Source of the DNA: a bacterium
GTDB taxonomy: Bacteria; CLD3; SB21
Assembly: GCA_019695335.1 (NCBI GenBank)
Contig: JAIBAF010000011.1
Coordinates: 13,277 to 77,276 of the forward strand
Length of the DNA: 64,000 bases
Direction: 5' to 3'
Part shown: piece after piece, positions 3,007 to 29,618 of the stretch
Position numbering within the stretch: the stretch's first letter is position 1
How the letters are laid out: each line of letters starts with the position of its first letter
Made by a program: the position numbers and the translations under genes
The notes under the pieces: generated by a model
Seen by the model: the letters and a program-made list of their open reading frames with translations, nothing else
Told to the model about the DNA's origin: nothing
The model's database searches: none

Positions 3007-4032
3007 TCAGAACTTAATACCCACCGAAAAGCGATGAGTTGCATCGAGTTGTCCCACGTCCATGTAACCATAATCGAAAGTGACACCTAAATCATCATTA
3101 AATTTATAATCCAACCCACCGCCAAAAGTCAAACCAGCCGTTGCGGCTTTGCTCGTGCGATAATCGCGATTACGTTTTAGGGTTGACGTATAGCCAACAC
3201 GTGCAAAAAACATGTTTTGAAAACCGTATTCGGCACCGAAATTAGTGCGGTTAGCCTGAAAACTATTTATATTTTGTTCCAAAATACCAGTAATAGAATT
3301 TTGTTCGTTACGATATAATTCCATACTAGCGCCAAAATTGACAGCCGCAGGTAACTCAAACGGCTCAGAACCAAACTTTAGAAAGGATTGCTGGCCTGAA
3401 ATAGGATCCGTTGTATTGCGCACTAATCCATCACCATTATATATTGATTGAGGGCCAATATTGGTTGCAGCAAAGCCTAATTTAAGCCCTCGATAACCAG
3501 TATTGTAGGTGAAACCAAAATCAAACGCAAAAGCCGATGCTGAAACTTGGTCAATGGCTGAATTAAGAAACTTCACCGTCAAACCGCCGCTTACACGATC
3601 CGTAATTTGCTTTGAATAAGTAAATCCAAGTGCTAAATCATATGGTGTGTAATTTCCCAAACCTCCGTTCGGATTGGTTTCACTTGTTTTTTCAATTGAC
3701 CCATAGCTTAAATAATTAAAACTCAAACCGAACACACCTGTTTCTCCCATAGGAAAACTGACTGCAGCGTAGTTCGATGTAATACCGGCAAAATGATTCA
3801 AATATGAAAAAGTAAAAGTTGCCCGGTCTGCACTCGATACATTAGCCGGATTCCAATAAATAGCGCTTGCACCGCTGCTATTGGTAAGCCCGGTTGTTCC
3901 TAGTGCGGTCTCACGAGCACCCAATGGAACGTGAAGAAACATAAAACCTGCTTCACCACGTTTTTCTTCACCAGCAAAAACTGATGCAGTCCACAACAAT
4001 AAATATGTTATGGCTATAACTCTTTGTTTCAT
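3007..4032 (-). CDS. Outer-membrane beta-barrel protein, PorV/PorQ-like (T9SS-associated, FadL-like). Family assignment is tentative.
   Basis: Signal peptide, conserved GARETALGTTG motif near the N-terminus, alternating beta-strand pattern, C-terminal ...GIKF ending in Phe. Last gene of an operon with a T9SS cargo protein. RBS AAGGAGA is present. Confidence 0.5.
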   Translation of the reverse strand: MKQRVIAITYLLLWTASVFAGEEKRGEAGFMFLHVPLGARETALGTTGLTNSSGASAIYWNPANVSSADRATFTFSYLNHFAGITSNYAAVSFPMGETGVFGLSFNYLSYGSIEKTSETNPNGGLGNYTPYDLALGFTYSKQITDRVSGGLTVKFLNSAIDQVSASAFAFDFGFTYNTGYRGLKLGFAATNIGPQSIYNGDGLVRNTTDPISGQQSFLKFGSEPFELPAAVNFGASMELYRNEQNSITGILEQNINSFQANRTNFGAEYGFQNMFFARVGYTSTLKRNRDYRTSKAATAGLTFGGGLDYKFNDDLGVTFDYGYMDVGQLDATHRFSVGIKF

Positions 4033-11646: not shown

Positions 11647-14600
11647 TCAATTGAACTCGGTGGGCAATGATCCGGAAAAAGTAACGATGGTGCCGTGTTC
11701 TCCGGATTGTATATCTAAAAAACCATTGATCTTTTGTGCACGATTGTGCATGCTCATCAACCCCTGACCAGCCGAACCATTGTGAGCATTAAAACCCGTA
11801 CCGTCGTCTTTTAAAGATACAATAATCCCTGAATAATTCAACTTAAATTCCAATTGGACGTTGTGACACTGAGCATGCTTCAGAATGTTGGTCATGGCCT
11901 CCTTAAAGATCAGGGTCAAATGTCTCCGCCAGTCCATGGATAAACGCAAATGAGCCATATCCTGATTCAAGCCGTTCACGCGGAAAGCAACTCCCGTACG
12001 CTCAAACAGTTCGTCGCCAAAATCCTTGATTCGGACGGCAACATCGTACAAAGAATCTCTTTCCGGATTCAGCGTCCACAGAAAATCACGCATCCCGATC
12101 GACAACGTTTTGGACGTGTCTATGATCTTGTTCATCGATTCCACGCTCTCAGCCGTTGCTTCCTTCAATTCTTTTTTCATAACTTCCGTAAGCAGCGCGA
12201 TTTTGGTTAATTTGTGCCCGAATTCATCGTGAAAATCATCGGCAGCTTTTTTCCGAATACGTTCGCTTTCCAGTACCCGTACGCGCTCCAATTCCAACAT
12301 GTGCGCAATACGCTGGCGAACCCTGTATTCGTGAGAAACCACCAATAACAATACGATCAGACCAACGGCCAAGCCGTAAAACCACCACGTTCGCCAGAAT
12401 GGCGGCGTAATCGTAATCGCGATCGAAGCTCCAACCTCATTCCATACTTGATCGTTATTAGAGCCTCGTACTCTGAATACATAATCGCCAGGACTTAAAT
12501 TGGTATAACTCGCATAACGCCGTAAACCGCTATGGACCCAATCCTCATCGAATCCTTCTAATTTATAGACATATTGATTTTTAGCCGGTAAAGTATAATC
12601 CAAAGCCACGAATTCAAACGAAAAGAAATTGTCCTGATACGATAATTCGATCACATCCATATCTGAAACGGGTTTATTAAATTTAACACGTTTGTCAAAT
12701 TTATTGAATGCCGTAATTACAATAGGCGGTACGTAAGGATTGTCTTTCATTTCATCGGGATAAAAACTGTTAAATCCATTAATGCCCCCAAAAAACATCT
12801 CGCTGGCTCGCGTTTTATACACTGCTCCCTGATTGAATTCATTACTCTGTAAACCGTCGGCAATATCGTAATTTTTGTGACTTTTGGTAATTGGATTAAA
12901 TTTCGATAAGCCGTTATTAGTACTCAACCACAAATTGCCGTCGTTATCATCCAGAATCCCGTAAATGACATTATTAGGAATACCGTCCTCTTCCGTAAAG
13001 CGCACAAACGTCTCCGTTTCCCGATTAAAACGGTTGAGTCCTCCTCCATACGTTCCGATCCAAATTTGCTTATTCAAATCTTCGTATATATTCATCACAG
13101 CATTGTGGCTCAAACTAGTAGGATCATGAAGGATCCGCTTGAACTGCTTGAAATCATCTTGCGAGCGATTAAATCGATTCAATCCGTTGCGCGTGCCGAT
13201 CCACAAAGTTCCGGCGTGATCTTCAAAAATCGTTGTCACCGATGCGCCGCTCAATGATGTGCTATCTTTCGGATCGAATAGATAACGTTTAAATGTATTG
13301 GTAGAACGATCAAATCGATTTAAACCTAAGGATGTACCAACCCAAATAACATGTTGGTGATCTTGATATACGCTGGTTACATAATCCGAAGAAAGCGACT
13401 GAGGATCATTAGAATTATACCGGTAAGATATCACGCGTTTGGATTTCGGATCGATTTTGTCTAAACTGCGCGGCCTTGCGGCCCACAAAAAACCTTCATT
13501 ATCTTCGATGATCCTCAAATAAAGTCCTCCCGAATCGTCTTTCATTAAGGGCTTGAACGATTCATCCGAACGATCAAATTGACATAAACCTTCGTCCGTT
13601 CCAACCCATAATGTACCTTCACGATCTTCACAAAATGACCACACAGTATTACCTGTCAAGCTTTTCGGATCGGTTGGATCGTGCTTGTAATGTTTAAACC
13701 TGTCTCGAAAACGATTGAGATTGCTCAACCCACCCAACTCCGTTCCAATCCATAGAGTACCCGTACGATCTTCATAAATGGATAAAACCGTATTATGACT
13801 AAGACTGCGGACGTCGGCCTGACTATATAAATAATGTTTGAACGACTGCCGTTTCGCATCCAAGCGGTTAAGTCCGTTATTAGTACCAATCCACAAAATA
13901 CCGAAATTATCTTCGATGATGCTGTTAATATTATTGGAACTTAAACTGGCATAATTTTTAAGATCATGAAAATACCGCGTAAATTGACCTGTGTCTTTGT
14001 CAAAACGGTTAAGTCCAGCATTCTCGGTTCCAATCCAAATAGTACCGGTATTATCTTCACACAATGCCGTAATGGAATTACCGCTGATCCCTCGCAGATT
14101 TCCAGAATTGTATTCATAGCGTGCCATCTGTTGTTTGTCCCGATCAAGACAAATCAAACCGTTGCCCGTAGCAATCCACGTATATCCGCTTTTATCCAAT
14201 AACAACGCCCTGATAGGTCCGAGATGGCGTGCTTTATCCGTATCACAAAAATAACGTTTGAATGCCCCCGTTTTCGGATCAAAACTGTGTAACCCAATAT
14301 TTGTACCAATCCATAAAATACCATATTGATCCTGAGCGATCGACGATACAAAGTTGCCGTTAATCGAAGTGGAATCCGACGGATCGTGGCGATAGTGGGT
14401 AAAATTATCATGATTGACATCGAATCGGTTAAGACCTTCATTCGTGCCAACCCAAAGTACTCCGTCATTGTCCTCATAAAGCGCACTGATTAAATCATTA
14501 GAAAGTGAGGTGGAATCCATCGGATTGTGCTTGTATATCGTCAGGGAATATCCATCATACCGGTTCAAACCATTGGCTGTACCAAACCACATAAATCCTT

Positions 14601-14748
14601 TGCGATCCTGCAAAATACAACGCACCGTGCTTTGCGATAAACCGTCATCAATTCCAAGCCTTTGAAAATGAAAATTATGACGCTGAGCAATGACTGCTGA
14701 ATTCAGAACGAATAAAAGACAAAACGATGTGAATCGTAAATACGACAT
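11647..14748 (-). CDS. Sensor histidine kinase with a periplasmic two-component-regulator beta-propeller plus Y_Y_Y domain
   Basis: Repeated propeller motifs (WIGT/WVGT..GLNRFD) at least 12 times, a TM segment, a HisKA_3-like H-box (FHDEFGHKLT) and a HATPase_c (DDGTGFN...GQGLMSMHNRA). Confidence 0.8.
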   Translation of the reverse strand: MSYLRFTSFCLLFVLNSAVIAQRHNFHFQRLGIDDGLSQSTVRCILQDRKGFMWFGTANGLNRYDGYSLTIYKHNPMDSTSLSNDLISALYEDNDGVLWVGTNEGLNRFDVNHDNFTHYRHDPSDSTSINGNFVSSIAQDQYGILWIGTNIGLHSFDPKTGAFKRYFCDTDKARHLGPIRALLLDKSGYTWIATGNGLICLDRDKQQMARYEYNSGNLRGISGNSITALCEDNTGTIWIGTENAGLNRFDKDTGQFTRYFHDLKNYASLSSNNINSIIEDNFGILWIGTNNGLNRLDAKRQSFKHYLYSQADVRSLSHNTVLSIYEDRTGTLWIGTELGGLSNLNRFRDRFKHYKHDPTDPKSLTGNTVWSFCEDREGTLWVGTDEGLCQFDRSDESFKPLMKDDSGGLYLRIIEDNEGFLWAARPRSLDKIDPKSKRVISYRYNSNDPQSLSSDYVTSVYQDHQHVIWVGTSLGLNRFDRSTNTFKRYLFDPKDSTSLSGASVTTIFEDHAGTLWIGTRNGLNRFNRSQDDFKQFKRILHDPTSLSHNAVMNIYEDLNKQIWIGTYGGGLNRFNRETETFVRFTEEDGIPNNVIYGILDDNDGNLWLSTNNGLSKFNPITKSHKNYDIADGLQSNEFNQGAVYKTRASEMFFGGINGFNSFYPDEMKDNPYVPPIVITAFNKFDKRVKFNKPVSDMDVIELSYQDNFFSFEFVALDYTLPAKNQYVYKLEGFDEDWVHSGLRRYASYTNLSPGDYVFRVRGSNNDQVWNEVGASIAITITPPFWRTWWFYGLAVGLIVLLLVVSHEYRVRQRIAHMLELERVRVLESERIRKKAADDFHDEFGHKLTKIALLTEVMKKELKEATAESVESMNKIIDTSKTLSIGMRDFLWTLNPERDSLYDVAVRIKDFGDELFERTGVAFRVNGLNQDMAHLRLSMDWRRHLTLIFKEAMTNILKHAQCHNVQLEFKLNYSGIIVSLKDDGTGFNAHNGSAGQGLMSMHNRAQKINGFLDIQSGEHGTIVTFSGSLPTEFN

Positions 14749-14831
14749 AAAATTAGGAAAGGAATAATGTTTATCGAAAGGTTCGAGTCGTTGAAGTCTA
14801 ATCTAATATAATTCTGAGCGGTTCGCAAATT

Positions 14832-17800
14832 TTATCGGGCAGCGATTTTCAGATGGCCACGCCCGAGCAACTTGTGTAATTGATAAATCAGGTCATGATT
14901 GGGAACGATGCGGAACTTTTTGATTTTGTAGTTGGCAACGGCATTTTTTTCAGGCAAATCGACACACAGTTGAATATCGCATGGATTTGTACCCGGATTA
15001 TTTACTTGTTGGCTTTTTTGAAGTGTTTGAATAATTGAATCCATCAGACCGTTGCCAAGCTGATGGAGTTGCACGTGAATGTAAATCTTACCGGTAAATC
15101 GTTCGAAAGCATCTTCAATTGGAAAAAGTTGATCGCATAAAATTCCTGGCACGTCGTTGCGGATAGAGATTTTACCGGTTACCATGACGACATTTTCTTT
15201 TTTAAGTAACGGCGCTATGTCTTTCATGACGCTTGCAAATACGACCACTTCGATCGTTCCGCCAAATCCTTCCAGTTTAACAAAGGCCATCGGATTGCCT
15301 TTTTTGTCGAAAATCTGACGGAGATCGGCGATCATACCGCCGACACGAATTTCTGAACCTTCACGTAAATCAATTTCTTCGCCGATCCTGATCATCGAGA
15401 ATGTATCAATTTCCGCGCGGTATTTATCCAACGGATGTCCCGACGCATAAAAACCTAATAATTCTTTTTCTTTGGCAAGCGCTTCCCCATGCGACCAGCG
15501 TGGAATTTCCGGCAACGGTATTGAAGTAAGTTGCTTTTTCTGCTCACCACTCACCGATCCGAAAATATCAACCTGATCGCTGTTGGCCGATTCTTGAGCA
15601 TTTGAACCAAACGATAAAGCTTTTTCGATAACATCGAAAAGCTGTGCCCGATGCCCCTGCAATGAATCGCATGCTCCGGACATTACAAGACTTTCCAGAA
15701 CTTTTTTGTTGACCAATCGCAGATCGGCATGTTCGCATAAATCAAAAATTGTTTTGAATTTCCCAAATTTTTCACGGGCAGATATGATCGATTCAATAGC
15801 CCCTAGCCCGACATTCTTGACGGCACCTAAACCGAATCGGATTGAATTATCTTTGACGTCGAATTCCGCTAAGCTTTCATTGACGTCGGGAGGTAAGACG
15901 TCGATGCCGATGTCACCGCAGGCATTGATCAAAACGGAAATACGGTCGGTATTCGCCATTTCGCTGGATAACACCGCCGCCATAAATTCCGCCGGATAAT
16001 GCGATTTCAGATAGGCCGTTTGATACGCCAACACCGAATACGCGGCCGAATGCGACTTATTAAACGCATAATTCGAAAAGGGAACCAAAATATCGAAAAT
16101 TTTCTCGGCCAATTCCTTTGTGTAGCTGTTGGCAACAGCGCCGTTGATCCAGTCGGGACGAACTTTATCCAATTCTTCGGGCTTCTTTTTCGCCATGATG
16201 CGCCGTACTACGTCGGCTTTGCCAAGAGAAAAACCGGCCAAAACTTGAGCCACTTGCATCACTTGCTCCTGGTACACGATGACGCCGTAAGTGTTTTTCA
16301 AGATCGGCTCAAGATTGACGTGAAAACAGTCGATCGGCTCTCGTCCATGTTTACGATTGATAAACGTTTTGATAAAATCCATCGGGCCAGGACGATATAG
16401 CGCATTCATCGCGATCAGATCTTCGATACTCGTAGGCTTGAGTTGTTTCATATATTCCGTCATGCCCTGCGATTCAAACTGGAATATGCCGACAGTTTCA
16501 CCGTTCCAGAAAAGATCGAATACTTTTTTGTCATCGAGCGGAATCGCATCCATATCAAGATTGATTCCGTAATTTTTCTGGATATGCCGCAACGTATCAT
16601 CAATAATAGTAAGTGTCGTTAACCCGAGAAAATCCATTTTCAACAGGCCGATTTTCTCGACCCAATCTTTATCAAATTGTGTTGCAATTTCGTCTTTGGC
16701 GGATTTATAGACCGGTACAAATTTTTTGATCGCATCGGGCGTAATGACGACTCCGGCGGCGTGAATACCGGGTTGTCTGACCAAACCTTCAAGCCGAAGG
16801 GCATTGCGGATAAGCTGGCTCATCTTTTCGTCATTACTCTTTTCCAGCGCTTTCATTTCGGGAACTTCATCCAGCGCTTGTTTGAGCGTGATCCCGAGTT
16901 TTCTGGGCACCATTTTGGCGATCCGATCGGCGTCGGACAATGCAATGTTCAGCGCTCGCGCCACGTCGCGTAATACACCGCGAGCGGCCATCGTGCCGAA
17001 CGTTATAATTTGTGCAACGTTGTCTTTACCGTATTTGTTAATGACGTATTCTATGACGCGCCCGCGATTGCGATCGTCAAAATCAATATCAATATCGGGC
17101 ATTGAAATACGTTCGGGATTCAAAAAACGCTCGAAAAGCAACTGATATTTGATCGGATCAACATTAGTAATGCCGATGGCATACGATACGAGGCTTCCTG
17201 CAGCAGAACCGCGGCCCGGGCCAACCGATACACCGATCTCTTTGGCCGAATTAATAAAATCCTGAACAATCAGAAAATATCCCGGAAAATCCATTTTAGT
17301 AATCATGTCCAATTCATATTGCAAACGCTTTCCGATATCCATCGAATAGTCCGGCATTTTCTTTTTCAAACCTTCGTATGCAAGATGGCGTAAATAGTCA
17401 TCCTGCGAAGCAAAACCTTCCGGTAATGTATACCGCGGTAATTGGGACTGACCGAACTCCATTTTAAATGAAATTTTTTCAGTCAAAGCGAGAGTATTGT
17501 CGATAGCGGAAGGAATATCTTTAAAAAGATTTTTCATCTCATCGGAAGTTCGGAAATAAAACGTATCGCCGGGATACTTAGGCCGCGTAACGTCATTAAT
17601 CGTTTTACCGGATTGAATGCACAACAAAACTTCATGCGCCGAAGCATCAGCGGCTTCCATGTAATGAATGTCGTTGGTCGCAATTAAAGGAATTCCCAAT
17701 TCTTCCGAAAGCCGGATCATCCCTTCATTCACTATTTGATCGGCTTTCAAACCGTGTCTCTGAATTTCCAGGTAAAAATCACCGCTGAAAATTTCGATAT

Positions 17801-18269
17801 ATTCTTTGGCAATCTTTTTTGCCTCATCGTAACGGCCATGCAGCAGCGCTTGCGGAATTTCGCCTTTCAAACACGCTGACGTTCCAATTAATCCTTTTGC
17901 ATATTGGCGAATACAATTTTTATCAATGCGCGGTTTGTAATAAAAGCCGTCCAGGTATCCCTGAGAAGCCAATACCATCAGATTGGAATATCCATTCTGA
18001 TCTTTAGCCAGCAATACGAGGTGATAAATCAGTTTACTTTTTTCAAGCCGGTTGGGTGCAAGATAAGCTTCCATGCCGATGATCGGCTTAATTTTGGCGC
18101 TCTTCGCTGCATTGAAAAACTCAGCCGCGCCGAATAGATTACCATAATCCGTCAAAGCCAGCGCCGGCATTTGATCTTTCGCGGCCGCTTCAATCAAATC
18201 ATCAATACGGCAGCAACTGTCCAGTAAGCTATAATGAGAATGATTATGGAGATGAACAAAATCAGGCAT
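14832..18269 (-). CDS. dnaE: DNA polymerase III alpha subunit
   Basis: PHP domain N-terminus MPDFVHLHNHSHYSLLDS, 1145 aa, conserved polymerase core motifs. Confidence 0.95.
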   Translation of the reverse strand: MPDFVHLHNHSHYSLLDSCCRIDDLIEAAAKDQMPALALTDYGNLFGAAEFFNAAKSAKIKPIIGMEAYLAPNRLEKSKLIYHLVLLAKDQNGYSNLMVLASQGYLDGFYYKPRIDKNCIRQYAKGLIGTSACLKGEIPQALLHGRYDEAKKIAKEYIEIFSGDFYLEIQRHGLKADQIVNEGMIRLSEELGIPLIATNDIHYMEAADASAHEVLLCIQSGKTINDVTRPKYPGDTFYFRTSDEMKNLFKDIPSAIDNTLALTEKISFKMEFGQSQLPRYTLPEGFASQDDYLRHLAYEGLKKKMPDYSMDIGKRLQYELDMITKMDFPGYFLIVQDFINSAKEIGVSVGPGRGSAAGSLVSYAIGITNVDPIKYQLLFERFLNPERISMPDIDIDFDDRNRGRVIEYVINKYGKDNVAQIITFGTMAARGVLRDVARALNIALSDADRIAKMVPRKLGITLKQALDEVPEMKALEKSNDEKMSQLIRNALRLEGLVRQPGIHAAGVVITPDAIKKFVPVYKSAKDEIATQFDKDWVEKIGLLKMDFLGLTTLTIIDDTLRHIQKNYGINLDMDAIPLDDKKVFDLFWNGETVGIFQFESQGMTEYMKQLKPTSIEDLIAMNALYRPGPMDFIKTFINRKHGREPIDCFHVNLEPILKNTYGVIVYQEQVMQVAQVLAGFSLGKADVVRRIMAKKKPEELDKVRPDWINGAVANSYTKELAEKIFDILVPFSNYAFNKSHSAAYSVLAYQTAYLKSHYPAEFMAAVLSSEMANTDRISVLINACGDIGIDVLPPDVNESLAEFDVKDNSIRFGLGAVKNVGLGAIESIISAREKFGKFKTIFDLCEHADLRLVNKKVLESLVMSGACDSLQGHRAQLFDVIEKALSFGSNAQESANSDQVDIFGSVSGEQKKQLTSIPLPEIPRWSHGEALAKEKELLGFYASGHPLDKYRAEIDTFSMIRIGEEIDLREGSEIRVGGMIADLRQIFDKKGNPMAFVKLEGFGGTIEVVVFASVMKDIAPLLKKENVVMVTGKISIRNDVPGILCDQLFPIEDAFERFTGKIYIHVQLHQLGNGLMDSIIQTLQKSQQVNNPGTNPCDIQLCVDLPEKNAVANYKIKKFRIVPNHDLIYQLHKLLGRGHLKIAAR

Positions 18270-18409
18270 GGATTTTCGTAAATTTAAATGAAAAGGTTTT
18301 GCATAATATAAAAACTATGTTAAAAAAGCAATTGTAGCGCGTAATTACAATAAAGATTCTAAGTTCGTAATATCCGGTTTGCATATCACCTTCCGTTAAC
18401 AAATAAGAA

Positions 18410-18452
18410 AACAAAAAAAGCCGTTTACGGGAATGTCCGTAAACGGCTTTGA
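18410..18452 (-). terminator. Rho-independent terminator after lipoprotein gene copy 1
   Basis: GCCGTTTACGG gaatgt CCGTAAACGGC with a T-run on the minus strand. Confidence 0.55.
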
Positions 18453-18472
18453 TAAATTAAAAATCGTTAAAA

Positions 18473-19078
18473 TCAGGATCGCCTCTTCCCAAATTGTGTT
18501 TTCAGACTCTCGATCTTCTGGGACAACGATGCCAACCCGGCCGGTGTCGCCACATTCGCATTAAATCCTGAATCCAGAATCTTTACTTCCGCCAAACTCT
18601 GTGTAAACTCTCCCAGCACAAAATGATTCGACGCTTTCAAAACCCGTAAGTCAGAAACATCCAATCCAAGACCATACGTAAACTCCCAATCCGAATCCAA
18701 CGCCAAAGCCACGCCGATCTCCGTGTTCGCCGCCGCATAACTCTTCCCCGCACTCAGCACAAACGCCCATCCGGCAAACAAATCAGCCGGTGCATTCGTT
18801 TTATCCGCCCCGTCACTGAACGCATTCGACGCGGCCGTGATATTGCTCAACTGAATGTAGCACCACCCTATTGCACTGTAGATTTCAGCCTTGTCAGGAT
18901 CCGCATCCCGAGCGTCTTCAAACGCTGCCAAGGCTTCCGTGTAATCTCCCGACGCGAACAACGTCTCGCCCTCGGTTATCAGTTTATCGTAATCCCCTTT
19001 ACCGGAACCGCCACCACACGAAAGCATTCCCAATGCTACCGTCATAGCCATTAATGTAAATATCTTCCTCGATCTCAT
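18473..19078 (-). CDS. Small TPR-like lipoprotein, copy 1
   Basis: Lipobox MLSCGGGSG and a helical TPR-like body. Essentially identical to 22497..23108. Confidence 0.6.
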   Translation of the reverse strand: MRSRKIFTLMAMTVALGMLSCGGGSGKGDYDKLITEGETLFASGDYTEALAAFEDARDADPDKAEIYSAIGWCYIQLSNITAASNAFSDGADKTNAPADLFAGWAFVLSAGKSYAAANTEIGVALALDSDWEFTYGLGLDVSDLRVLKASNHFVLGEFTQSLAEVKILDSGFNANVATPAGLASLSQKIESLKTQFGKRRS

Positions 19079-19995
19079 AATTCTACTCCTTATTTGATCA
19101 ACATCATTTTTTTCGTTTTGACAAACGCGCCGGCTTCGACGCGGTATAAATACACCCCGCTCGCCACCTGCTGGCCCAGTTCATTCTTCCCATCCCAGCT
19201 GATGCGGTAACTGCCGGCCAATTGAAATCCGCTATACAGCGTCTTCACGCGCTGACCCAATAAATTATATACCACTAACTTCAGAGTACCGTCCTGTGGA
19301 AGATCAAACGCGATCGTTGTGCTCGGGTTAAATGGATTCGGATAGTTTTGTTTCAATGTAAATTCTTTCGGCACAACATTATTACCGGTAAATGTAGCAT
19401 CGAGCCCGACCTTAAACTCTCCCAAAGTTTTGACTAAGGCCCGCACTTGATGCTTCTCCGCATACACTTGTGTACGCAAAGGCGTCCACGTATCACCGGT
19501 CTTCTGATAAATAAACACCTTCCCTTCATCTGCGAAATTACCTTGGGCATAGGTCATCGTGAGCACCAGTTCCTCGGCGTAGTCGCTCTCCGGACCGAAT
19601 TTCACAACCGTTTCACTTTCATCCGAGGCTGTCATATAGGTCTCGGTTTTAACCGAATGTTTGCTCATCTGCAAGGTCCCTTGACCGTTGGGGGTGGTGA
19701 CCGAGGCGATCTGTCCCGGCTTGGCCAGCGTGACGCCATAGGTTCTTGTCTGGATCGAATCTCTTCCACCGCTCGTAGTTGCCTTGATCCGGAAATTATA
19801 AGTTCCGCTGACTGAGAACACCGACGCACCACGGTATACTTTATTGGTACCGTTCACCTGAGCCATCGCGATCGATGTAGTATCGGTTAAACCGGTCACC
19901 CACATCTTGACCGTCGGCACGCCGCTGAACGCTGTGTCGGTCACGACCACCATGTCAAAATATTTCGACAACGCCGGATTCTGTAAAATCGACGT
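18485..19995. repeat. Direct repeat copy 1 (~1.5 kb, at least 99% identical to 22515..24025). It spans the lipoprotein gene plus the 3' ~900 nt of the BNR cargo gene.
   Basis: Pairwise comparison at a constant 4030-bp offset: identical for ~1350 bp, then five SNPs (19843, 19888, 19939-19941, 19974-19976) before the copies diverge. Confidence 0.85.
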
Positions 19996-22164
19996 ACCCA
20001 ACGGTGCGGGCGATGAATTTCCGAAATACTTCAACGACCTAGCTAATATTTTACCCATATTCGAATTTTCGAATAAGCGATAAATCTGAGCGCTTATAAA
20101 TACTCCTCGCGCGCCATGCCCTGTGTTATCAACATTTACTCCTCCGACATTAACGCTATCGGGATCATAATTAGGTCCGTAATAAAATGCTTTGTGTACG
20201 TTGCTGTTCAACAAGGTCAACTTATCACGTGTTGAGCCTCCTAACGCAATTGATGTCGTAATTCCATCACCTATTTTATTGGCGGTAAATCCTTTGAAAC
20301 TACTCGACGATGTATAGTTCCCGTTAAATCCGACTCCAAGTTTGTTTTGAAAAAGCGGATGCGATGAATGCAATTCTACTAAATCCGGTCCTGCAGCAAA
20401 TAAATGAACTCCACGGTCACATAGTAAGCTTAATGTATCGAGGAACGCCGTTGTTGTTGTTATTGCTGATGATGCAGACCATATAATAACTCGTCTTTTT
20501 GTTTTTTCAATGGCCTCGACAGGCAAACTTCGTCCCATAGTCACTAAATCCCAAAGATATGTGGTATAACCAGAATCTAATAAATGGCTTTGCATAAAAG
20601 TACCATAGAAAGCGATATCAACCATTACAAAAACGTCCGCCCGATCAATATTAAATTCATAATTAGAATTCAAAGATGGTTGTGCAATGGACTGCCTTAC
20701 ATAAGGCGCTTCGGAAATCACTACAATTGAATCATAAAAATTGAGTGATGAAAGATTTGTAAAAGTATTCCCGGATAGCGTATCCGCTGGAAATAGAGTA
20801 CCATTGCCATATCGACCGTACAATAAAACTGTAGAATTGACGTCATCCTGATAGACGTTGACCACGCTTACGCCAATGGAACCCATCGTTCCATTTAGTG
20901 ATAATTGGAAATTAACGTCAGTTGTACCACCTGCATTGACGTTGACATTTCCGATAACCTGATTAACACCAGCAGATTGAGCTTTAAGAGAATAAGTGCC
21001 GGGTGATAAATACATGGTGTACTTTCCGTCAGTATTATTGACGATACAACTGTCCGAACCTCCGACGACTACTACCGACGCATGCCCAACCGGCAAACCT
21101 CCGGAAGTCGTTGTAATCGTACCGGATATTTTGCCATAGCCGGAAGGATTGGTATTGAGTTTATATAAATTGGTGCCAAGCGCATCCTGATTGAGTGCAT
21201 AGACATCATGACTCGTAGCTGCTTTAATCATCCAGATGGCAGGATACGTAAATAGGTTTCCAAGTTGCTGCCAACTCTTTCCTTTATCAGCGCTTCTGTA
21301 AATACCTACTTCGAGGGACGTTCGGGAACCAAATACACCGATAAATAAATCCCCATTGACCGGATCCTGATCCAAACCCCACATGAAAATTCCATACAAT
21401 CCCATATCATTCCATGTCACGCCGCCGTCAGTACTTCGAAAGAATGAATAAGCAGCATCCAGTTGAATAGCCGCGTACACCATATTTGGCGTCGACTTAT
21501 CCCAAACGATTTTCGGGCATTCAGAGAAATAAGGATTCCCTCCTTTGACCAATGTCCAAGTCAAACCGTAATCTGTCGACCTGGCAATCTTAGTATCACC
21601 GGCACCTATGACGATTACGTTGGGATGAAAAGGATCAGCTGCAATGGTACAAACGTTACCATAAGGAACAACCGAACGCACGTGCCACGTACGGCCCGTA
21701 TCCGCGCTCAGCCAAAATTCACTCGTGTAAAAATCGACAAAATACATCGTGTCGGGATGAACAATATTATAGTCAAATGATTCACCGTCAGTCGAGCCTT
21801 CTTCTTTAACTTGTTCCCAATCAAATCCTCCATTTGTACTACGAAGAATACCATTATTTCCTACCATAACGATAATGGAAGTATCCAACGGACTCACGCG
21901 AATAGTACGAATGCCCGGACCTTGCGAAATGGATCCCCGTGTACTCCAGGTCGAACCCGCATCATAACTCACTTTGAATATTTTCTCCACGTTGTCGTGA
22001 ATGTACACGACATTATTATTAAGTGGACTCAACACAAATGCATAACCGTCGTGAACAGTCGGATACGTTTTCGTCCACGTCAGGTTTGTCTGTGAGTGTG
22101 CTGAAGTAGCAATGACTAGCATTTCTACAAAAAAAGTCCAAAACACCGTACGTAAAAAATTCAT
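19090..22164 (-). CDS. T9SS-sorted surface protein, paralog A: N-terminal BNR/Asp-box beta-propeller, CarboxypepD_reg-like domain, central domain of unknown function, and Por secretion tail
   Basis: Signal peptide. Six S-x-D-x-G-x-T/S-W Asp-box motifs (SYDAGSTWS, STNGGFDWE, SADTGRTWH, STDYGLTWT, STDGGVTWN, SADKGKSWQ). C-terminal KQNYPNPFNPSTTIAFDLP...VYLYRVEAG...KKMMLIK matches the T9SS CTD. Confidence 0.7.
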   Translation of the reverse strand: MNFLRTVFWTFFVEMLVIATSAHSQTNLTWTKTYPTVHDGYAFVLSPLNNNVVYIHDNVEKIFKVSYDAGSTWSTRGSISQGPGIRTIRVSPLDTSIIVMVGNNGILRSTNGGFDWEQVKEEGSTDGESFDYNIVHPDTMYFVDFYTSEFWLSADTGRTWHVRSVVPYGNVCTIAADPFHPNVIVIGAGDTKIARSTDYGLTWTLVKGGNPYFSECPKIVWDKSTPNMVYAAIQLDAAYSFFRSTDGGVTWNDMGLYGIFMWGLDQDPVNGDLFIGVFGSRTSLEVGIYRSADKGKSWQQLGNLFTYPAIWMIKAATSHDVYALNQDALGTNLYKLNTNPSGYGKISGTITTTSGGLPVGHASVVVVGGSDSCIVNNTDGKYTMYLSPGTYSLKAQSAGVNQVIGNVNVNAGGTTDVNFQLSLNGTMGSIGVSVVNVYQDDVNSTVLLYGRYGNGTLFPADTLSGNTFTNLSSLNFYDSIVVISEAPYVRQSIAQPSLNSNYEFNIDRADVFVMVDIAFYGTFMQSHLLDSGYTTYLWDLVTMGRSLPVEAIEKTKRRVIIWSASSAITTTTAFLDTLSLLCDRGVHLFAAGPDLVELHSSHPLFQNKLGVGFNGNYTSSSSFKGFTANKIGDGITTSIALGGSTRDKLTLLNSNVHKAFYYGPNYDPDSVNVGGVNVDNTGHGARGVFISAQIYRLFENSNMGKILARSLKYFGNSSPAPLGTSILQNPALSKYFDMVVVTDTAFSGVPTVKMWVTGLTDTTSIAMAQVNGTNKVYRGASVFSVSGTYNFRIKATTSGGRDSIQTRTYGVTLAKPGQIASVTTPNGQGTLQMSKHSVKTETYMTASDESETVVKFGPESDYAEELVLTMTYAQGNFADEGKVFIYQKTGDTWTPLRTQVYAEKHQVRALVKTLGEFKVGLDATFTGNNVVPKEFTLKQNYPNPFNPSTTIAFDLPQDGTLKLVVYNLLGQRVKTLYSGFQLAGSYRISWDGKNELGQQVASGVYLYRVEAGAFVKTKKMMLIK

Positions 22165-22439
22165 AACGTCCTCTTTTTATTTAATACTTTCCACTTTTTC
22201 CGGTCGTAACAGACATCAAATATTTCGCATTTACAACATTTTTAAAAACCTGACTGAATATATGTTCTATATAAGCTCCATCTTAGGATACGACAACTAC
22301 CTGATTGGATAGTATTGATATGAAAAGAAAGGAATCTTTTATCAAAACTACCCTTTCGGCTATTTCTGGATGAATTACAAAAAGATGTTTCGTAATGTAA
22401 AAACTTTAAAAAGCGATCCCGGTCATGGCTAATGGGAAA

Positions 22440-22476
22440 TAAAAAAACCCTTTGAAAATCCAATCTCAAAGGGTTC
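22440..22476 (-). terminator. Rho-independent terminator after lipoprotein gene copy 2
   Basis: CCCTTTGA...TCAAAGGG hairpin with a T-run on the minus strand. Confidence 0.5.
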
Positions 22477-22496
22477 GTAAAGTATTCTCTTGATTC

Positions 22497-23108
22497 TTAA
22501 TTCGGTAACTTGAGCTTCCCAAATTGTGTTTTCAGACTCTCGATCTTCTGGGACAACGATGCCAACCCGGCCGGTGTCGCCACATTCGCATTAAATCCTG
22601 AATCCAGAATCTTTACTTCCGCCAAACTCTGTGTAAACTCTCCCAGCACAAAATGATTCGACGCTTTCAAAACCCGTAAGTCAGAAACATCCAATCCAAG
22701 ACCATACGTAAACTCCCAATCCGAATCCAACGCCAAAGCCACGCCGATCTCCGTGTTCGCCGCCGCATAACTCTTCCCCGCACTCAGCACAAACGCCCAT
22801 CCGGCAAACAAATCAGCCGGTGCATTCGTTTTATCCGCCCCGTCACTGAACGCATTCGACGCGGCCGTGATATTGCTCAACTGAATGTAGCACCACCCTA
22901 TTGCACTGTAGATTTCAGCCTTGTCAGGATCCGCATCCCGAGCGTCTTCAAACGCTGCCAAGGCTTCCGTGTAATCTCCCGACGCGAACAACGTCTCGCC
23001 CTCGGTTATCAGTTTATCGTAATCCCCTTTACCGGAACCGCCACCACACGAAAGCATTCCCAATGCTACCGTCATAGCCATTAATGTAAATATCTTCCTC
23101 GATCTCAT
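22497..23108 (-). CDS. Small TPR-like lipoprotein, copy 2
   Basis: Identical to copy 1 except for the last few C-terminal residues. Confidence 0.6.
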   Translation of the reverse strand: MRSRKIFTLMAMTVALGMLSCGGGSGKGDYDKLITEGETLFASGDYTEALAAFEDARDADPDKAEIYSAIGWCYIQLSNITAASNAFSDGADKTNAPADLFAGWAFVLSAGKSYAAANTEIGVALALDSDWEFTYGLGLDVSDLRVLKASNHFVLGEFTQSLAEVKILDSGFNANVATPAGLASLSQKIESLKTQFGKLKLPN

Positions 23109-24025
23109 AATTCTACTCCTTATTTGATCAACATCATTTTTTTCGTTTTGACAAACGCGCCGGCTTCGACGCGGTATAAATACACCCCGCTCGCCACCTG
23201 CTGGCCCAGTTCATTCTTCCCATCCCAGCTGATGCGGTAACTGCCGGCCAATTGAAATCCGCTATACAGCGTCTTCACGCGCTGACCCAATAAATTATAT
23301 ACCACTAACTTCAGAGTACCGTCCTGTGGAAGATCAAACGCGATCGTTGTGCTCGGGTTAAATGGATTCGGATAGTTTTGTTTCAATGTAAATTCTTTCG
23401 GCACAACATTATTACCGGTAAATGTAGCATCGAGCCCGACCTTAAACTCTCCCAAAGTTTTGACTAAGGCCCGCACTTGATGCTTCTCCGCATACACTTG
23501 TGTACGCAAAGGCGTCCACGTATCACCGGTCTTCTGATAAATAAACACCTTCCCTTCATCTGCGAAATTACCTTGGGCATAGGTCATCGTGAGCACCAGT
23601 TCCTCGGCGTAGTCGCTCTCCGGACCGAATTTCACAACCGTTTCACTTTCATCCGAGGCTGTCATATAGGTCTCGGTTTTAACCGAATGTTTGCTCATCT
23701 GCAAGGTCCCTTGACCGTTGGGGGTGGTGACCGAGGCGATCTGTCCCGGCTTGGCCAGCGTGACGCCATAGGTTCTTGTCTGGATCGAATCTCTTCCACC
23801 GCTCGTAGTTGCCTTGATCCGGAAATTATAAGTTCCGCTGACTGAGAACACCGACGCACCACGATATACTTTATTGGTACCGTTCACCTGAGCCATCGCG
23901 ATCGATGTAGTATCGGTCAAACCGGTCACCCACATCTTGACCGTCGGCACGCCGCTGAGCACTGTGTCGGTCACGACCACCATGTCAAAATATTTCGACA
24001 ACGCCGGATTCTGCAGAATCGACGT
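22515..24025. repeat. Direct repeat copy 2 (partner of 18485..19995)
   Basis: Same alignment as copy 1, at a 4030-bp offset. Confidence 0.85.
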
Positions 24026-26526
24026 CGCAATATGCGGTGCGTATTGTTCGCCCAACGGAAGCGCAAATGTAGTACTGTTGGCTTCATTCGAATTGGCCGA
24101 TGTGCCGCTGGCATTCACAGCTTTGACTACATAATAATATGTCGTACTGGCTGTTAAATTCGAATCGGTTAATGTTGTTTCATTCGCTTCAACCGTATCG
24201 ATATTGGCGTAACCGCTGCCGCTCGTCAATGAACGGGAAATAATAAATCCCGTTTCATTATCAGCATTATCCGTCCAGCTCAGTTGGATCTTTGACGCCG
24301 AAATGGTTGTCGTCATTAGATTGGATGGCGCGATAGGCGCATTAAGTGAAAGTGTCCTTTTAAAGATTTTGCCTATAACAGATGACGCAACACCGGACAA
24401 ATCAAAACCCAACAACAAAGCCCAGCCGTTGCTGCCCGTATTGTCGACAAACGCTCCACCAATATTAACGGAGTCTCCAGCAACCGAACCATAATAAAAT
24501 GCTTTATGACCTGAAGCAGAAAGAAGGTTGATTTTGTCACGCGAAGTGGAACTGCTTGCCGAAAAATTAATCCCGTTCCCAATGGGGCTGCTTGTAAAAC
24601 CGTTGATGGCTGTACTATTGGTGTAATTTCCTGTAAATCCCAATTTCAATGTATTCTTAAAAAATGAATGTGCCGAATCCAATTCTACCAGATTTTGTCC
24701 GGCAACAATAATATCTATCCCCTCATTACAGAACATCGCCAAACTATCCAGGAACTCCTGAGGCATGGATGAAAGGTGCCTACGAGTCAACCACATTACT
24801 GTTTTGAGATTGGTTTTATTAATTGCGCTCAATGAAATAGAACGCCCGCGCTCATCAACGTTCCAATTAAATGACGAAAAACCCGAATCCGATAAAGGGG
24901 TTTGGTATGTTGGTGCGTACGTAGCTCCGCCAACACCAAAATTAGGATCAGGATCATTGATAATAAGAACGTCAGCGCGTTTAACATTTATCGTATAATC
25001 ATTATTAAGCGCAAGCGGTGATACAGAGGTCGTTATATAGGGAACCGTACTTGGAACAACAACAATAGAATCATAAAAATTTAGCGAAGAAAGATTGGTA
25101 AAGGCATTGCCCGAAAGCGTATCGACCGGAAATGGAGCGCCGTTACCATATCGGCCATACAATAACGCGATGTAATCCAGATCATCCTGGTAAATGTTAC
25201 TTACACTCACTCCAATAGACCCCAAAGTTCCGCTTAATGGTAATTGAAAATCGACTACCGTATTTCCTGTAGCAACAATATTCACACTTCCAATGATTTG
25301 ATTAACACCTGCCGATTGGGCTTTGAGGGAATACGTGCCGGGTGATAGATACATCGTGTATGTGCCATCAACATTATTGACGATACAGCTATCCGAACCT
25401 CCGACTACAACGATGGAAGCGTGCTCTACCGGTAATCCACCCGTAACCGTAGTGATGGTACCTGAAACTTTACCGTAACCGGAAGGATCCGTATTAAGTT
25501 TATAAAGATGAACATTACCAAATGCGTTAGGATCATCTGCATTCAAAGCATAAACGTCATGATTCGAAGCAGTTTTGATCATCCAAACATTTGGATAGCA
25601 AAAGTATTTCCAAGCTGCTGCCAGCTTTTACCTTTATCGGCGCTTCTAAAGATACCAAGATTGAATTCATGCTGTGCGCTTCCTGTTGAACCAAAAACGC
25701 CAATGAACAGATCCCCATTATCCGGATCCTGATCCAGCCCCCACATAAATATTCCATATAATCCCATATCGTTCCATGTCACACCGCCATCCGTACTTCG
25801 ATAAAACGAGAAATTGACATCTTGTTGAATAGCCGCGTATACCATATTCGGTGTGGACTTATCCCAGACAATTTTCGGACACTCCGAAAAATATTCATTA
25901 CCGGTTTTAACTAATGTCCAGGTTTCGCCATAATCGGTTGAACGGGCAATACGCGTGTCCCCTGATCCGACAACAATGACATTCGGATGAAACGGATCGG
26001 CCGCAATCGTACAGACGTTGCCATACGGTACGACCGAACGTACTTGCCACGTACGTCCTGTATCCGCACTGAGCCAAAATTCGCTTGTGTAAAAATCAAC
26101 AAAATACATCGTATCCGGATGAGCAAAATTATAATCAATCGATTCACCGTCAATCGAACCCTCCGGCTGAACATTATCCCAGTTATACCCGCCATTCGTG
26201 CTGCGAAGAATACCCGAATTACCAACCATCACGATGATGGACGTATCCAACGGACTCACGCGTATTGTACGAATACCCGGACCCGGTGTAATGGAACCGC
26301 GCTTACCCCACGTCACGCCGCCGTTATAACTTACTTTAAATGCTCCCTCTACGTTATCATGAATATAAACGACATTATTATTAACGGGGCTTATGACAAA
26401 GGCATAACCGTTATGGACAGTCGGATATGCTTGCGTCCACGTGAGGTTTGTCTGAGCTCGGGCTGATGCAACAAGCACCAGCGCGGCTACAATAAAGCAC
26501 CCAAACGTTGTTCGTAAAAAATTCAT
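23120..26526 (-). pseudogene. T9SS-sorted BNR-propeller surface protein, paralog B. Domain order is BNR propeller, CPD-reg-like, central domain, an extra FN3 domain, then the shared C-terminal module plus CTD. Split by a -1 frameshift into ORFs 25579..26526 and 23120..25582.
   Basis: The N-terminal 315-aa ORF ends ...SWQQLGNTFAIQMFG*. The -1 frame continues ...YPNVWMIKTASNHDVY, matching paralog A (...LGNLFTYPAIWMIKAATSHDVY). A one-nucleotide deletion relative to copy A is inferred near 25596-25600. Confidence 0.55.
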
Positions 26527-26538
26527 AACGTTCCTCCT

Positions 26539-28371
26539 TTATTTGATGAACAAAAGCTTTTTTGTTTGAACAGTCTTACCGGCTATCATCCTGTAAAAAT
26601 ACAGTCCGGACGCGACCGTCTGCCCTTTGGCATTTCTGCCATCCCACGTTACTGCGTATTGACCTGCGTCTTTTCTAGAATTTTCAAGCGTCCGGATCTC
26701 CTGTCCCATCGCATTATATATTTTTATCGTTACCGATTGATTATTGTCTGGAACATCGTATTTGATCCGTGTATCACCATTGAATGGGTTCGGATAATTC
26801 TGATACAAAGCATAGTTCTCCGGCTCACGTATCGATTCATCAAATTGAATCTGAAACACCGTATCAATCATCACATATTCCCGCATATCCCAACCTTTGA
26901 CATCCGCCCACGCCTTGAAAACAGCACGGTACACCAACTGGATATGAATATTCGCCTGAGAGTTCTTGCCTACCTTGAACACCATGCTGCTGGTATCTGT
27001 CTTTCCTGCCGGAATCCGGCTATCATAAATAATCTCGGTAGCAAACCAATTTGTCGTTGGCGAATCGCCGGTATCCTCATTGCGTGTAAATAACGTAAAT
27101 CCTTTTCCCGGAAGGCCGGAAAAATTACCTTCCGCAGGACTGCCCACACCGCCGTAAAACGGAATGGTGTCCCCATCGAGTTGTGTCAACATTTGACCGT
27201 TATTATCCGCTTTGACTACCAGGAACATATTTCTGAAACTCACTCCGGTCGGTAATTTGTGACCCGCGCCGACGTTGGTCACCAGCGCTTTGAGCGACAA
27301 TTGATTTTGCGTCAACGTCTTTTCCACGGCCAATCGTGCCGATCGATTCATAAATGCCGGCGTCGTCCCTTTAAAAAACTGGCTGTACACTCTGTTCGTA
27401 TCACGTACCACCGCATCCGCGGCCGCAATTCCACCGGCGAAAATCGAATCACTGTTGGGGCGCATGTGACAATCTTGGCATTGAATACCTTGGGCCGCAA
27501 ACGAACTCGCCGCCCATGAGTCGTACGTATCATCGACAATCACTCCGTAGCGGTTTGCATATTGATGGCAACCGGAACAAAACGCACTTTTTTCATAAAT
27601 CGGGTTATACGTACCGCCCATCCAGTCCGTGGTCACATCGTCAAATTGTCCATAATTAATATCACGTGCATGCGGCATAGGCCGTTTCACAAAAATCGAT
27701 CCGTTCACTCCGGTAGAATAATTCACGTCCACGCTGTCAATCTTATGGCAGAAATCGCAGAACACACCGGCCGTGTCGATGCTGTTGGAATTCCATACAT
27801 CGTTTAATTCCGTATTTCCCGGCGTACGCAGCGCAGCCGACGGTGCATGGCAATCGCCGCAATCACCGCCTTCATTCGGAAAATTCAATTTAAACCCGGG
27901 ATATACTCCCGTATTACCGTTGACGTCCGTGCCGTTGTAGATTTGTTTCAGCATCGAATTCGTGGCCGCCCGCGCATGTTTGGATTCACTCCATTGATTA
28001 AATAAACCACCGTGACAATTCCGGCAAAACGTCGGATTTTGAAAAACAAAATCAGCATTATCTTCTTCAGGCAATGGTTCCATTTTGATAGTATCGCTGG
28101 TACCGACTACGAACAACCGCCGTTTATTGAACCATCCGCGCTTACCGGCTGCAAGTGTTACAAACGAACCGATGGCTTTATCCGTAAAGAGTGTAAATTC
28201 ACCTTGAGCATTGGTCAAAACGAAATCATTGCTTCCGGGAAACCGAACACGCGCGTCCGGCACCGGCATCAAGTCTTCTGAACTCACTACGACTCCTGAT
28301 ACAGGCTGACCTGATTGTGTCAGTAACACAAAGGAACAAAAAAGAATTATTGACAATATGGCCTTAAGCAT
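26539..28371 (-). CDS. Pentaheme c-type cytochrome with an N-terminal CarboxypepD_reg-like domain and a T9SS C-terminal sorting domain
   Basis: Signal peptide. Five CxxCH motifs: CRNCH (aa 116-120), CGDCH (171-175), CDFCH (205-209), CSGCH (265-269), CQDCH (298-302). C-terminus YALYQNYPNPFNGDTRIKYDVP...GLYFYRMIAGKTVQTKKLLFIK matches the Por secretion tail. Confidence 0.8.
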   Translation of the reverse strand: MLKAILSIILFCSFVLLTQSGQPVSGVVVSSEDLMPVPDARVRFPGSNDFVLTNAQGEFTLFTDKAIGSFVTLAAGKRGWFNKRRLFVVGTSDTIKMEPLPEEDNADFVFQNPTFCRNCHGGLFNQWSESKHARAATNSMLKQIYNGTDVNGNTGVYPGFKLNFPNEGGDCGDCHAPSAALRTPGNTELNDVWNSNSIDTAGVFCDFCHKIDSVDVNYSTGVNGSIFVKRPMPHARDINYGQFDDVTTDWMGGTYNPIYEKSAFCSGCHQYANRYGVIVDDTYDSWAASSFAAQGIQCQDCHMRPNSDSIFAGGIAAADAVVRDTNRVYSQFFKGTTPAFMNRSARLAVEKTLTQNQLSLKALVTNVGAGHKLPTGVSFRNMFLVVKADNNGQMLTQLDGDTIPFYGGVGSPAEGNFSGLPGKGFTLFTRNEDTGDSPTTNWFATEIIYDSRIPAGKTDTSSMVFKVGKNSQANIHIQLVYRAVFKAWADVKGWDMREYVMIDTVFQIQFDESIREPENYALYQNYPNPFNGDTRIKYDVPDNNQSVTIKIYNAMGQEIRTLENSRKDAGQYAVTWDGRNAKGQTVASGLYFYRMIAGKTVQTKKLLFIK

Positions 28372-29098
28372 TATTAATAATTATTGACTTTAATTGTAAA
28401 AACCCGTGAAACTATAACACTTCTAACACTCAAACAACCTGCATCATAATGTGGTTCACCATTAAGCAGAACTATCCAAACGACACTAAAACAATCCGTT
28501 GGCTTTATCTATAAATATTAGCGCAAGGAACAAACAGACAAAAATACTACTATCAAGGCGATTCTAACCATGAAATTACCTAGCTAAATGGAACTGACAA
28601 ACTATGACGCAATAGAGGGTGCGGTCAATGTAAGGATCGAACATAGTAAGCGCAAGGGAATTTTAAGGCTGTTTTGTTTTGGCTAACCACTGACGAACCC
28701 TTGCATCCGATGGATTGAGGGTTAAGGCTTTCGATAGATAGTCTCTAGCTATTAAACGAATCTTACCAAGTCCAAAATAAGCGTCGTAAAGGTCGGATTA
28801 ATTTGAAAGCACTTGAAAACATGCTTCTTCAGCTTCACTAGGCCTTCGATTTCTCTAAAAACCGGATACGCTAAAAGGAGCTTCCCTCTACAATCGCGCG
28901 TGTGCTTGGTGCCATGGCCTGGACGGAGAAGGATTGACGGCAAAGGCGAATCGTTGGATATAAAACCTTCACAAACTCTGACCATCATCGAACAAATCCG
29001 GCAGGGCGGTTACCGTATGCCATTCTTTCAAACCGATATCATTTCAGACTAGGAACTGGCCGATATAGCCGCTTTACATTATTGCTTTACGAAGCCGC

Positions 29099-29545
29099 TC
29101 AAAGCAGCCGTGAGATGCTGAAGGTTGTTCCGGTTTGAGGAAAGTAAACAACACCGACAACGTCCATTGTCTGTCCGTTAAATGAAACCGTAGGTTTATC
29201 GATATTGGCCGTCACAAAATAAATGCAACGCGTCGACCAATAGCTCTTGCCATCCACCGTCACATCGGCAACATATTCCGCTTGTTCATTCCTCTTGTAG
29301 TTGTATACGACACTTTTACCAACCACATCCATGACGGTTTTGTCGTTTTTCTGAAAGAAAATGCGGATAGGAATGGACGATGTGAACGTCACGTCTTTGT
29401 AGAAACCTTCAGGAGCTTGGTTACTGCAACTGATGTCAATAGTATTACTGCCAAAAGTCAGCGTGTACCGTTGCTGCTGAGCCGAAATATTCGTGACAGC
29501 TAAAAAAGCCAACATAACAATCCCGATTCCACATTTCATAGGCAT
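29099..29545 (-). CDS. Small secreted hypothetical protein
   Basis: 148-aa ORF with a signal peptide (MPMKCGIGIVMLAFLAVTNISAQ). No recognisable domain. Confidence 0.45.
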   Translation of the reverse strand: MPMKCGIGIVMLAFLAVTNISAQQQRYTLTFGSNTIDISCSNQAPEGFYKDVTFTSSIPIRIFFQKNDKTVMDVVGKSVVYNYKRNEQAEYVADVTVDGKSYWSTRCIYFVTANIDKPTVSFNGQTMDVVGVVYFPQTGTTFSISRLL

Positions 29546-29618
29546 GGATCCTTTCTTAAAGTTTGTGAACCATCTGTAGTGTACAATTTTTGCTTTATAT
29601 TTTCAAATTAAAAATAAT

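Follow-up and report, generated by a model that had tools for sequence, protein, structure and literature searches.

In Helicobacter pylori, the babA/babB and sabA/sabB pairs carry near-identical 3' segments alongside divergent 5' and middle segments, and gene conversion between the loci is documented; the loci are dispersed, and conversion between them gives functional or antigenic 'switching'. The pilE/pilS system of Neisseria depends upon non-reciprocal recombination between an expressed gene and a defective paralogue, with many silent cassettes and dedicated cis elements, and diversifies a variable region. Interlocus gene conversion and concerted evolution of bacterial paralogues are well documented, with tufA/tufB as an example (PMC6053082), and have been reviewed by Santoyo & Romero (2005), taken here as that review is discussed in PMC6053082; the tuf paralogues within a genome are identical at sites of either kind, synonymous and non-synonymous, through homologous recombination, the duplication being much older than the identity. 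In Porphyromonas gingivalis, genes for cargo proteins of the type IX secretion system (T9SS) share identical repeats that automated assembly leaves unresolved (the adhesin-domain repeats of rgpA, kgp and hagA; PMC5266723). Here, we describe a locus within a 64,000-nucleotide stretch (hereafter, the window) of a metagenome-assembled genome (MAG), in which two tandem copies, A and B, of a bicistronic cassette each encode a predicted T9SS-secreted Sortilin/BNR-propeller 'cargo' protein and a tetratricopeptide-repeat (TPR) lipoprotein. The cassettes are identical, or nearly so, over their last 1.5 kb and diverged upstream of it; in our view it is very probable that an old tandem duplication of the cassette was later followed by homogenisation of the 3' 1.5 kb through gene conversion between the copies.

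The likeness to tufA/tufB is that of paralogues made identical, at synonymous and non-synonymous sites alike, long after they arose. In tuf, conversion takes in the whole gene, the copies are dispersed and both functional, and homogenisation has lasted for very long; here it is limited to the 3' 1.5 kb of a cassette of two genes, the copies are tandem and direct, the reading frame of one of them is shifted, and the 5' two-thirds have been free to diverge. The P. gingivalis genes are likewise T9SS cargo with divergent N-terminal functional parts, but they are separate multi-repeat genes that lack a co-homogenised downstream partner, and both the organism and the families are unrelated to the Sortilin/BNR cargo. 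Unlike pilE/pilS, the locus has two copies, it is the constant part that is homogenised, and no such cis elements were found; its likeness to babA/babB and sabA/sabB is one of sequence, in the near-identical 3' and divergent 5' segments, and not of dispersed loci or demonstrated switching. What we describe is a fresh, well-delimited instance of a well-known process, and no new mechanism or kind of system; it is set apart by being partial and tandem, by the co-conversion of the gene for the partner lipoprotein, and by the involvement of a frameshifted copy. Its interest lies in providing a natural conversion tract that ends at insertions/deletions (indels), in T9SS cargo genes of an uncultured bacterium of FCB (Fibrobacteres-Chlorobi-Bacteroidetes) type, where a secretion domain has been co-homogenised with a downstream lipoprotein gene; it also adds a data point for concerted evolution, and possibly for GC-biased conversion, in bacteria.

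The whole locus lies on the minus strand, in the order cytochrome, cargo B, lipoprotein B, spacer, cargo A, lipoprotein A, dnaE. Cargo paralogue A (19090-22164; 1024 amino acids (aa), corresponding to NCBI entry MBX7150851.1) is followed by TPR lipoprotein A (18473-19078; 201 aa, ending in the tail KRRS), and cargo paralogue B (23120-26526) by TPR lipoprotein B (22497-23108; 203 aa, with the tail KLKLPN), after which comes a terminator of its own. Our repeat coordinates are based on an ungapped comparison of the window with itself at an offset of 4030 nucleotides (nt), in which 18485-19833 matches 22515-23863 letter for letter over 1349 nt, much as the initial annotation of this DNA had put it (~1350 bp). 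This identical core is adjoined by a zone of 162 nt (19834-19995, partner 23864-24025) that holds six mismatches in four clusters (19834, 19888, 19929, 19931, 19984 and 19986), and not the five point differences first counted; homology then breaks at 19996/24026, and from there, as also below 18485/22515, ungapped identity is ~25-35%. BLAST of the 64 kb window against itself returned only two repeats in total: one with the same limits as the ungapped comparison, and as initially annotated (18485-19995 vs 22515-24025; 1511 nt, 99.6%), and a second (20720-22185 vs 25059-26547; 74.0%) made up of the diverged 5' halves of the same cargo genes.

Each copy of the repeat takes in the 3' 906 nt of its cargo gene (the last 302 codons), an 11-nt spacer and the lipoprotein gene up to its last 3 codons (copy A) or last 5 codons (copy B), stopping 12 nt and 18 nt, respectively, before the end of the lipoprotein open reading frame (ORF); the final 3-5 codons and the stops differ between the two. 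The BNR cargo 3' end (~900 nt) and the spacer were therefore correctly assigned to the repeat at the outset, but the lipoprotein gene, then taken to be included whole, is not. At the 74% identity of the flanks, a perfect run of 1349 nt would occur by chance with P ~10^-176, whilst the confinement of all six differences to the terminal 162 of 1511 nt has P ~1.5e-6, or 1.3e-4 if they are counted as four events; chance is thereby excluded as the source of the identity profile.

The two parts of the unit differ profoundly in age. A comparison of synonymous divergence (dS) along the paralogue alignment had been proposed in the initial annotation as a check, and we made it by the Nei-Gojobori method on a codon alignment of A and B, with the frameshift in B repaired. 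Over cargo codons 1-700, the proportion of synonymous differences (pS) is 0.70-0.76, such that synonymous sites are saturated; nucleotide identity of the paralogues outside the tract is 74%. The propeller has a ratio of non-synonymous to synonymous divergence (dN/dS) of ~0.06, and for the middle region dN comes to ~0.55. At the protein level, the divergence noted at the outset is confirmed, with a range (~26-53% identity in the middle region, 64-95% in the propeller) that is wider than the 60-85% then claimed. In the tract, by contrast, the copies are without a single difference over the 246 final codons of the cargo gene, 198 codons of the lipoprotein gene and the 11-nt spacer between the two genes; in the adjoining zone of single-nucleotide polymorphisms (SNPs), pS is ~0.10 and dS ~0.11, from four synonymous and two non-synonymous changes, of which, when polarised with a contig from a related species (L090, described below), A and B each hold three in the derived state. 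Since synonymous and intergenic differences are beyond the reach of selection, the two parts of the unit must have very different coalescence times.

The tract is also flanked on both sides by old paralogous DNA, ~74% identical in each case. On the 5' side, this is the remainder of the cargo genes. On the 3' side, within the inter-unit spacer (22165-22496; 332 nt), which contains a strong terminator (22445-22476), the segment 22380-22473 aligns over 98 nt at 74.5% identity (E = 2e-11) with positions 1679-1775 of L087, another contig from a relative, where these cover the terminator and the dnaE-upstream region; to the dnaE-upstream region of the window itself, the segment bears a weak similarity. 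From the position of this diverged relic, after lipoprotein B, it follows that the ancient duplication took in not only the lipoprotein gene but also DNA as far as the dnaE promoter region. For the ~190 nt of the spacer directly upstream of gene A, no homology was found, the 3' end of the cytochrome gene included. An internal near-identical patch, set between anciently diverged stretches of paralogous DNA, is the signature of interlocus gene conversion. At its 5' end, the tract adjoins a 24-nt indel and then an indel block of ~375 nt (24026-24400), within which lies a fibronectin type III (fn3) domain present in B only (24077-24331), and at its 3' end it adjoins the non-homologous lipoprotein tails (18484/22514); it thus fills the entire collinear segment between two heterologies. 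That a tract should end at indels is as expected if the extension of heteroduplex is blocked by heterologies.

One of the two copies is frameshifted. A 1-nt deletion relative to A, between 25598 and 25597, splits cargo B into a 315-aa ORF (25579-26526), on which the signal peptide lies, and an 820-aa ORF (23120-25582) that is without one; the ATG of the latter overlaps the TGA stop of the former. The Logan contig L004, from a separate assembly of short reads, carries this frameshift too, matching without a difference (100%) along 2621 nt, and cargo B is probably a recent pseudogene. Programmed -1 frameshifting was considered for B and rejected, as a slippery heptamer is absent at 25590-25600.

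The antiquity of the duplication was gauged from relatives, represented by a few short metagenomic contigs (L090 being a k = 31 metagenomic contig). Distant relatives (L005 and L006; 42-44% aa identity) have a single cassette in the same cytochrome-cargo-lipoprotein synteny, whilst closer ones (L087, L088 and L090) were reached via the dnaE cluster and a search with the lipoprotein. L090 and L087 belong to one species, with dnaE at ~83-85% nucleotide identity to that of the window, and have the order cytochrome, one cargo gene (1234 aa, with two fn3 domains), a 201-aa lipoprotein with the tail KRRA, an HNOB/V4R gene and dnaE; L088 and L089 carry a 203-aa lipoprotein with the tail KLKLSS, beside a convergent accA-like gene. 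The tail KRRS of the window is orthologous to KRRA at the dnaE locus (P0127/L090/L087), and KLKLPN to KLKLSS next to accA (P0126/L088). Similarly, the terminator after lipoprotein A (18417-18450) is unlike that after B in sequence, and is homologous to the terminator of L090/L087. The two lipoprotein types of the relatives have ~77% nucleotide identity to each other, whereas the window's two copies are identical and the tract has ~76% nucleotide identity to either type.

The single cargo gene of L090 (1841-5545 of that contig) is a mosaic, in which residues 1-160 are B-like, residues 160-280 and 571-720 much more closely resemble A (nucleotide identity of 0.72-0.83, as against 0.52-0.63), and the second fn3 domain matches the fn3 of B. 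As parts of both kinds are present, the A/B duplication must be older than the split between the species; the gene itself resembles the product of unequal exchange in an ancestral tandem pair, with B fused to A, unless the Logan contig is chimeric. Within the tract, then, the paralogues of this genome are more alike than orthologues are between genomes, and the duplication predates speciation, as far as relatives that are few and known from short contigs can tell. Further searches added little: a homologue search confined to the 720 aa of A outside the repeat yielded no sequence with an identity between 53% and 100%, a profile scan of genome contigs with the cargo alignment recovered mostly the generic T9SS motif QNYPNPFN and did not return the close relatives, and in a scan of JGI metagenomes an exact 27-mer from the tract went unmatched, with a lipoprotein profile finding only relatives at <=59% identity on short contigs.

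A separate observation concerns the region between the lipoprotein gene and dnaE in the species of L087 and L090. When L087 900-1800 is compared with L090 6180-7080, identity is 98-100% in the lipoprotein gene and dnaE, and only 60-75% across the HNOB/V4R gene, which is absent from the window; judging by this alignment, the interval appears to be a divergent-allele or recombination island.

The gene conversion suggested in the initial annotation is thus supported by saturated as against zero synonymous change, by old DNA on both flanks, by the lipoprotein types of the relatives and by the frameshifted state of B. We propose that an ancient tandem duplication, of a segment that began ~20 nt upstream of the cargo ATG and extended into the dnaE-upstream region, would have given rise to the two bicistronic cassettes, whose copies would then have diverged to synonymous saturation and gained indels, through loss or gain of fn3 and through different lipoprotein tails. 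Much later, recombination between the direct copies, either within a chromosome or between sister chromosomes and presumably RecA-dependent, would have written the 3' 1.5 kb of one copy onto the other, with heteroduplex extension being halted 5' by the 24-nt indel and the fn3 indel (19996/24026), and 3' by the tails (18484/22514). The recombination pathway, the non-reciprocity of the exchange and the number of events are what we infer from this pattern; at least two events are suggested, an older one that would have reached 19995, with six substitutions and a dS of ~0.11 since, and a very recent one that would account for 18485-19833, the youngest homogenised tract, with zero differences.

A number of points weigh against gene conversion as we have set it out. 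The source is a MAG contig (80.9 kb), and the case is known from assembled contigs alone; if a de Bruijn graph had been traversed as a loop, the core copies would be identical by construction, with isolated paralogue SNPs collapsed, and the retained SNPs are separated by identical stretches of 53, 40 and 52 nt, each below a k of 55. On the Logan contigs, lipoprotein A is complete and lipoprotein B never is, with all three of the contigs that match the tract (L001-L003) crossing from the repeat into the dnaE side unbroken. On the comparative side, the evidence comes from few, short metagenomic contigs, L090 could itself be chimeric, and the tail homology spans only ~18 nt. Nor do informative sites tell which copy was the donor: at the 199 sites that distinguish the relatives' lipoprotein types, the tract agrees with the 201-aa type at 86, with the 203-aa type at 78 and with neither at 35, and so is equidistant from both.

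Several of these points bear on the possibility that the identity was imposed by assembly, whereby a real tandem, with 3' segments that are only similar, was collapsed onto one graph edge and written out twice, the copy number possibly being an artefact too. We think this unlikely. Apart from the MAG origin of the sequence, this organism's short-read Logan contigs are short and break up in the repeat region; the end of L004 falls precisely 31 nt (k) beyond the SNP at 24014 that is specific to B, as it would at a de Bruijn branch, which in turn indicates that the A and B alleles are both present in run SRR14610251. The warning of an assembly hazard in the initial annotation was, accordingly, a fair one. 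The retained SNPs could, moreover, have been chained from the unique flank, being spaced at less than 55 nt, and contigs L001 and L002, from different runs, start 4 nt apart (at 19771 and 19767), 62-66 nt inside the perfect tract and for no visible reason; these starts, together with the unbroken crossing into the dnaE side, may reflect hidden variation or an unequal abundance of the two junctions. Against this, the 3' boundary lacks any SNP at a distance of k or less, where one would have been preserved by its link to the unique flank, and the contigs of three SRA runs (L001-L003) match the tract at 100% identity for as much as 1287 nt. A segment diverged to 74% would not collapse, such that at most a few isolated SNPs could be hidden and the inference of conversion would stay intact.

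The tandem arrangement itself is biological, a spacer of diverged paralogous sequence being something that no assembler can make up; all four repeat junctions lead into distinct sequence, and the spacer has its own terminator. What remains of the collapsed or chimeric repeat raised at the outset is, therefore, that the identity and the copy number could be assembly-imposed, and not that there is a single real copy or a chimeric tandem, given a spacer that is unique and diverged. Exact-protein look-ups with cargo A, dnaE, lipoprotein B and a 75-aa spacer ORF gave no record, so the tandem junction is not confirmed in a separate assembly, and a literature search on the SRA and assembly accessions gave no match. 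The practical value of the case is for annotation and assembly, since a repeat of this sort is a known trap for short reads: with a perfect direct repeat of 1.35 kb in an 81-kb MAG contig, the copy number, any hidden paralogous SNPs and a possible B-head/A-tail deletion variant need verification with reads before use.

Unequal crossing-over strikes us as rather improbable. Here, misaligned recombination between sister chromosomes, within the 3' segment that the units share, would have expanded the array to three units, followed by contraction, and would thereby have made that segment uniform, leaving no non-reciprocal patch as such. Tandem direct units are the right substrate for such events, and the L090 locus resembles a B/A fusion that they would produce, but two successive rearrangements with compatible endpoints would be needed, and crossing-over alone leaves unexplained both the ends of the tract at heterologies and the older SNP zone; the present data do not separate crossing-over from conversion. 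We regard as highly improbable a chimeric assembly of two strains or species with one cassette each, as might be suggested by the single cassette that the close relative L090 has between the cytochrome gene and dnaE: the tail of lipoprotein B runs directly through the unique 332-nt spacer into gene A (the only other path being a 4-kb circle), that spacer, as a relic of paralogous dnaE-upstream DNA that has since diverged, is beyond any assembler's making, and the A and B alleles occur together in one run. Scarcely credible, finally, and refuted by the contrast at synonymous sites, is an account without recombination, through purifying selection on the functionally constrained T9SS C-terminal domain or through recent duplication of the whole unit and rapid 5' divergence, as identity at every synonymous site and in the intergenic spacer rules out selection as the cause and so does the frameshift in copy B, the saturated dS and low dN/dS (~0.06) of the 5' parts speak of age and not of fast adaptive change, and the duplication is older than the split from L090. 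A programmed cassette or 'shufflon' system was also rejected, there being no inverted repeats >=40 nt in 14000-30000, two copies only in the window, and no recombinase among the neighbouring ORFs examined.

Gene conversion over a longer period may have left a trace in base composition. The GC content at third codon positions (GC3) of the tract is 0.60 in its cargo part and 0.56 in its lipoprotein part, as compared with 0.34-0.42 for the remainder of these genes. Among 23 other ORFs it is 0.43 +/- 0.05, with a maximum of 0.49, which places the tract ~3 standard deviations above other genes of the window; the orthologous segments in relatives (L090 and L088) are likewise raised, at 0.50-0.56. 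This is compatible with long-term GC-biased conversion but is not proof of it, as a different origin of the segment could also account for the raised GC3.

More speculatively, the locus could act as a 'head-swapping' device, with a constant 1.5-kb anchor kept identical by recurrent GC-biased conversion whilst N-terminal propeller heads are exchanged; we consider this very doubtful. If true, the anchor would comprise the C-terminal module, the T9SS sorting domain and the partner lipoprotein, RecA-mediated deletion, duplication or conversion would swap heads before this single secretion/anchoring module, and the frameshifted copy would serve as a silent head. The mosaic gene of L090, the raised GC3 across species and the adjacent divergent-allele island would then be traces of a recombination hotspot.

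Turning to the proteins themselves, the cargo architecture consists of a signal peptide, a Sortilin/BNR propeller, CarboxypepD_reg, a variable middle region, an unannotated module of ~215 aa and a T9SS type A C-terminal domain. As judged from sequence features, these are T9SS type A cargo: a hydrophobic N-terminus is visible, Por_Secre_tail (TIGR04183) is found in both A and B (37.4 bits, cutoff 23), and the window encodes a T9SS component, a PorV/PorQ family protein at 3007-4032 (196 bits, cutoff 90). The ~215-aa module (19186-19995; residues 721-936 of cargo A), which lies after the middle region and before the T9SS domain, is without a Pfam match; it is present in A, B, P0003-P0005 and L007, and absent from family members of 811-832 aa, and its N-terminal edge coincides exactly with the start of the conversion tract.

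Upstream of the cassettes lies a gene for a multihaem c-type cytochrome that also has a T9SS C-terminal domain (26539-28371), in the same synteny in L005, L006 and L090; downstream lies dnaE, encoding DNA polymerase III alpha (14832-18269). The synteny of a T9SS-sorted multihaem c-type cytochrome, Sortilin/BNR cargo and TPR lipoprotein is kept down to 42% aa identity, and the conservation of this trio suggests that they form a functional unit, perhaps a redox or surface complex outside the cell. An Rfam search of the window gave no match. Elsewhere in the window, directly upstream of the PorV/PorQ family gene, a 1146-aa protein (4103-7543) has no Pfam match and a weak PorZ-like match at its C-terminus; from its position and this similarity, it may be another T9SS component or cargo.

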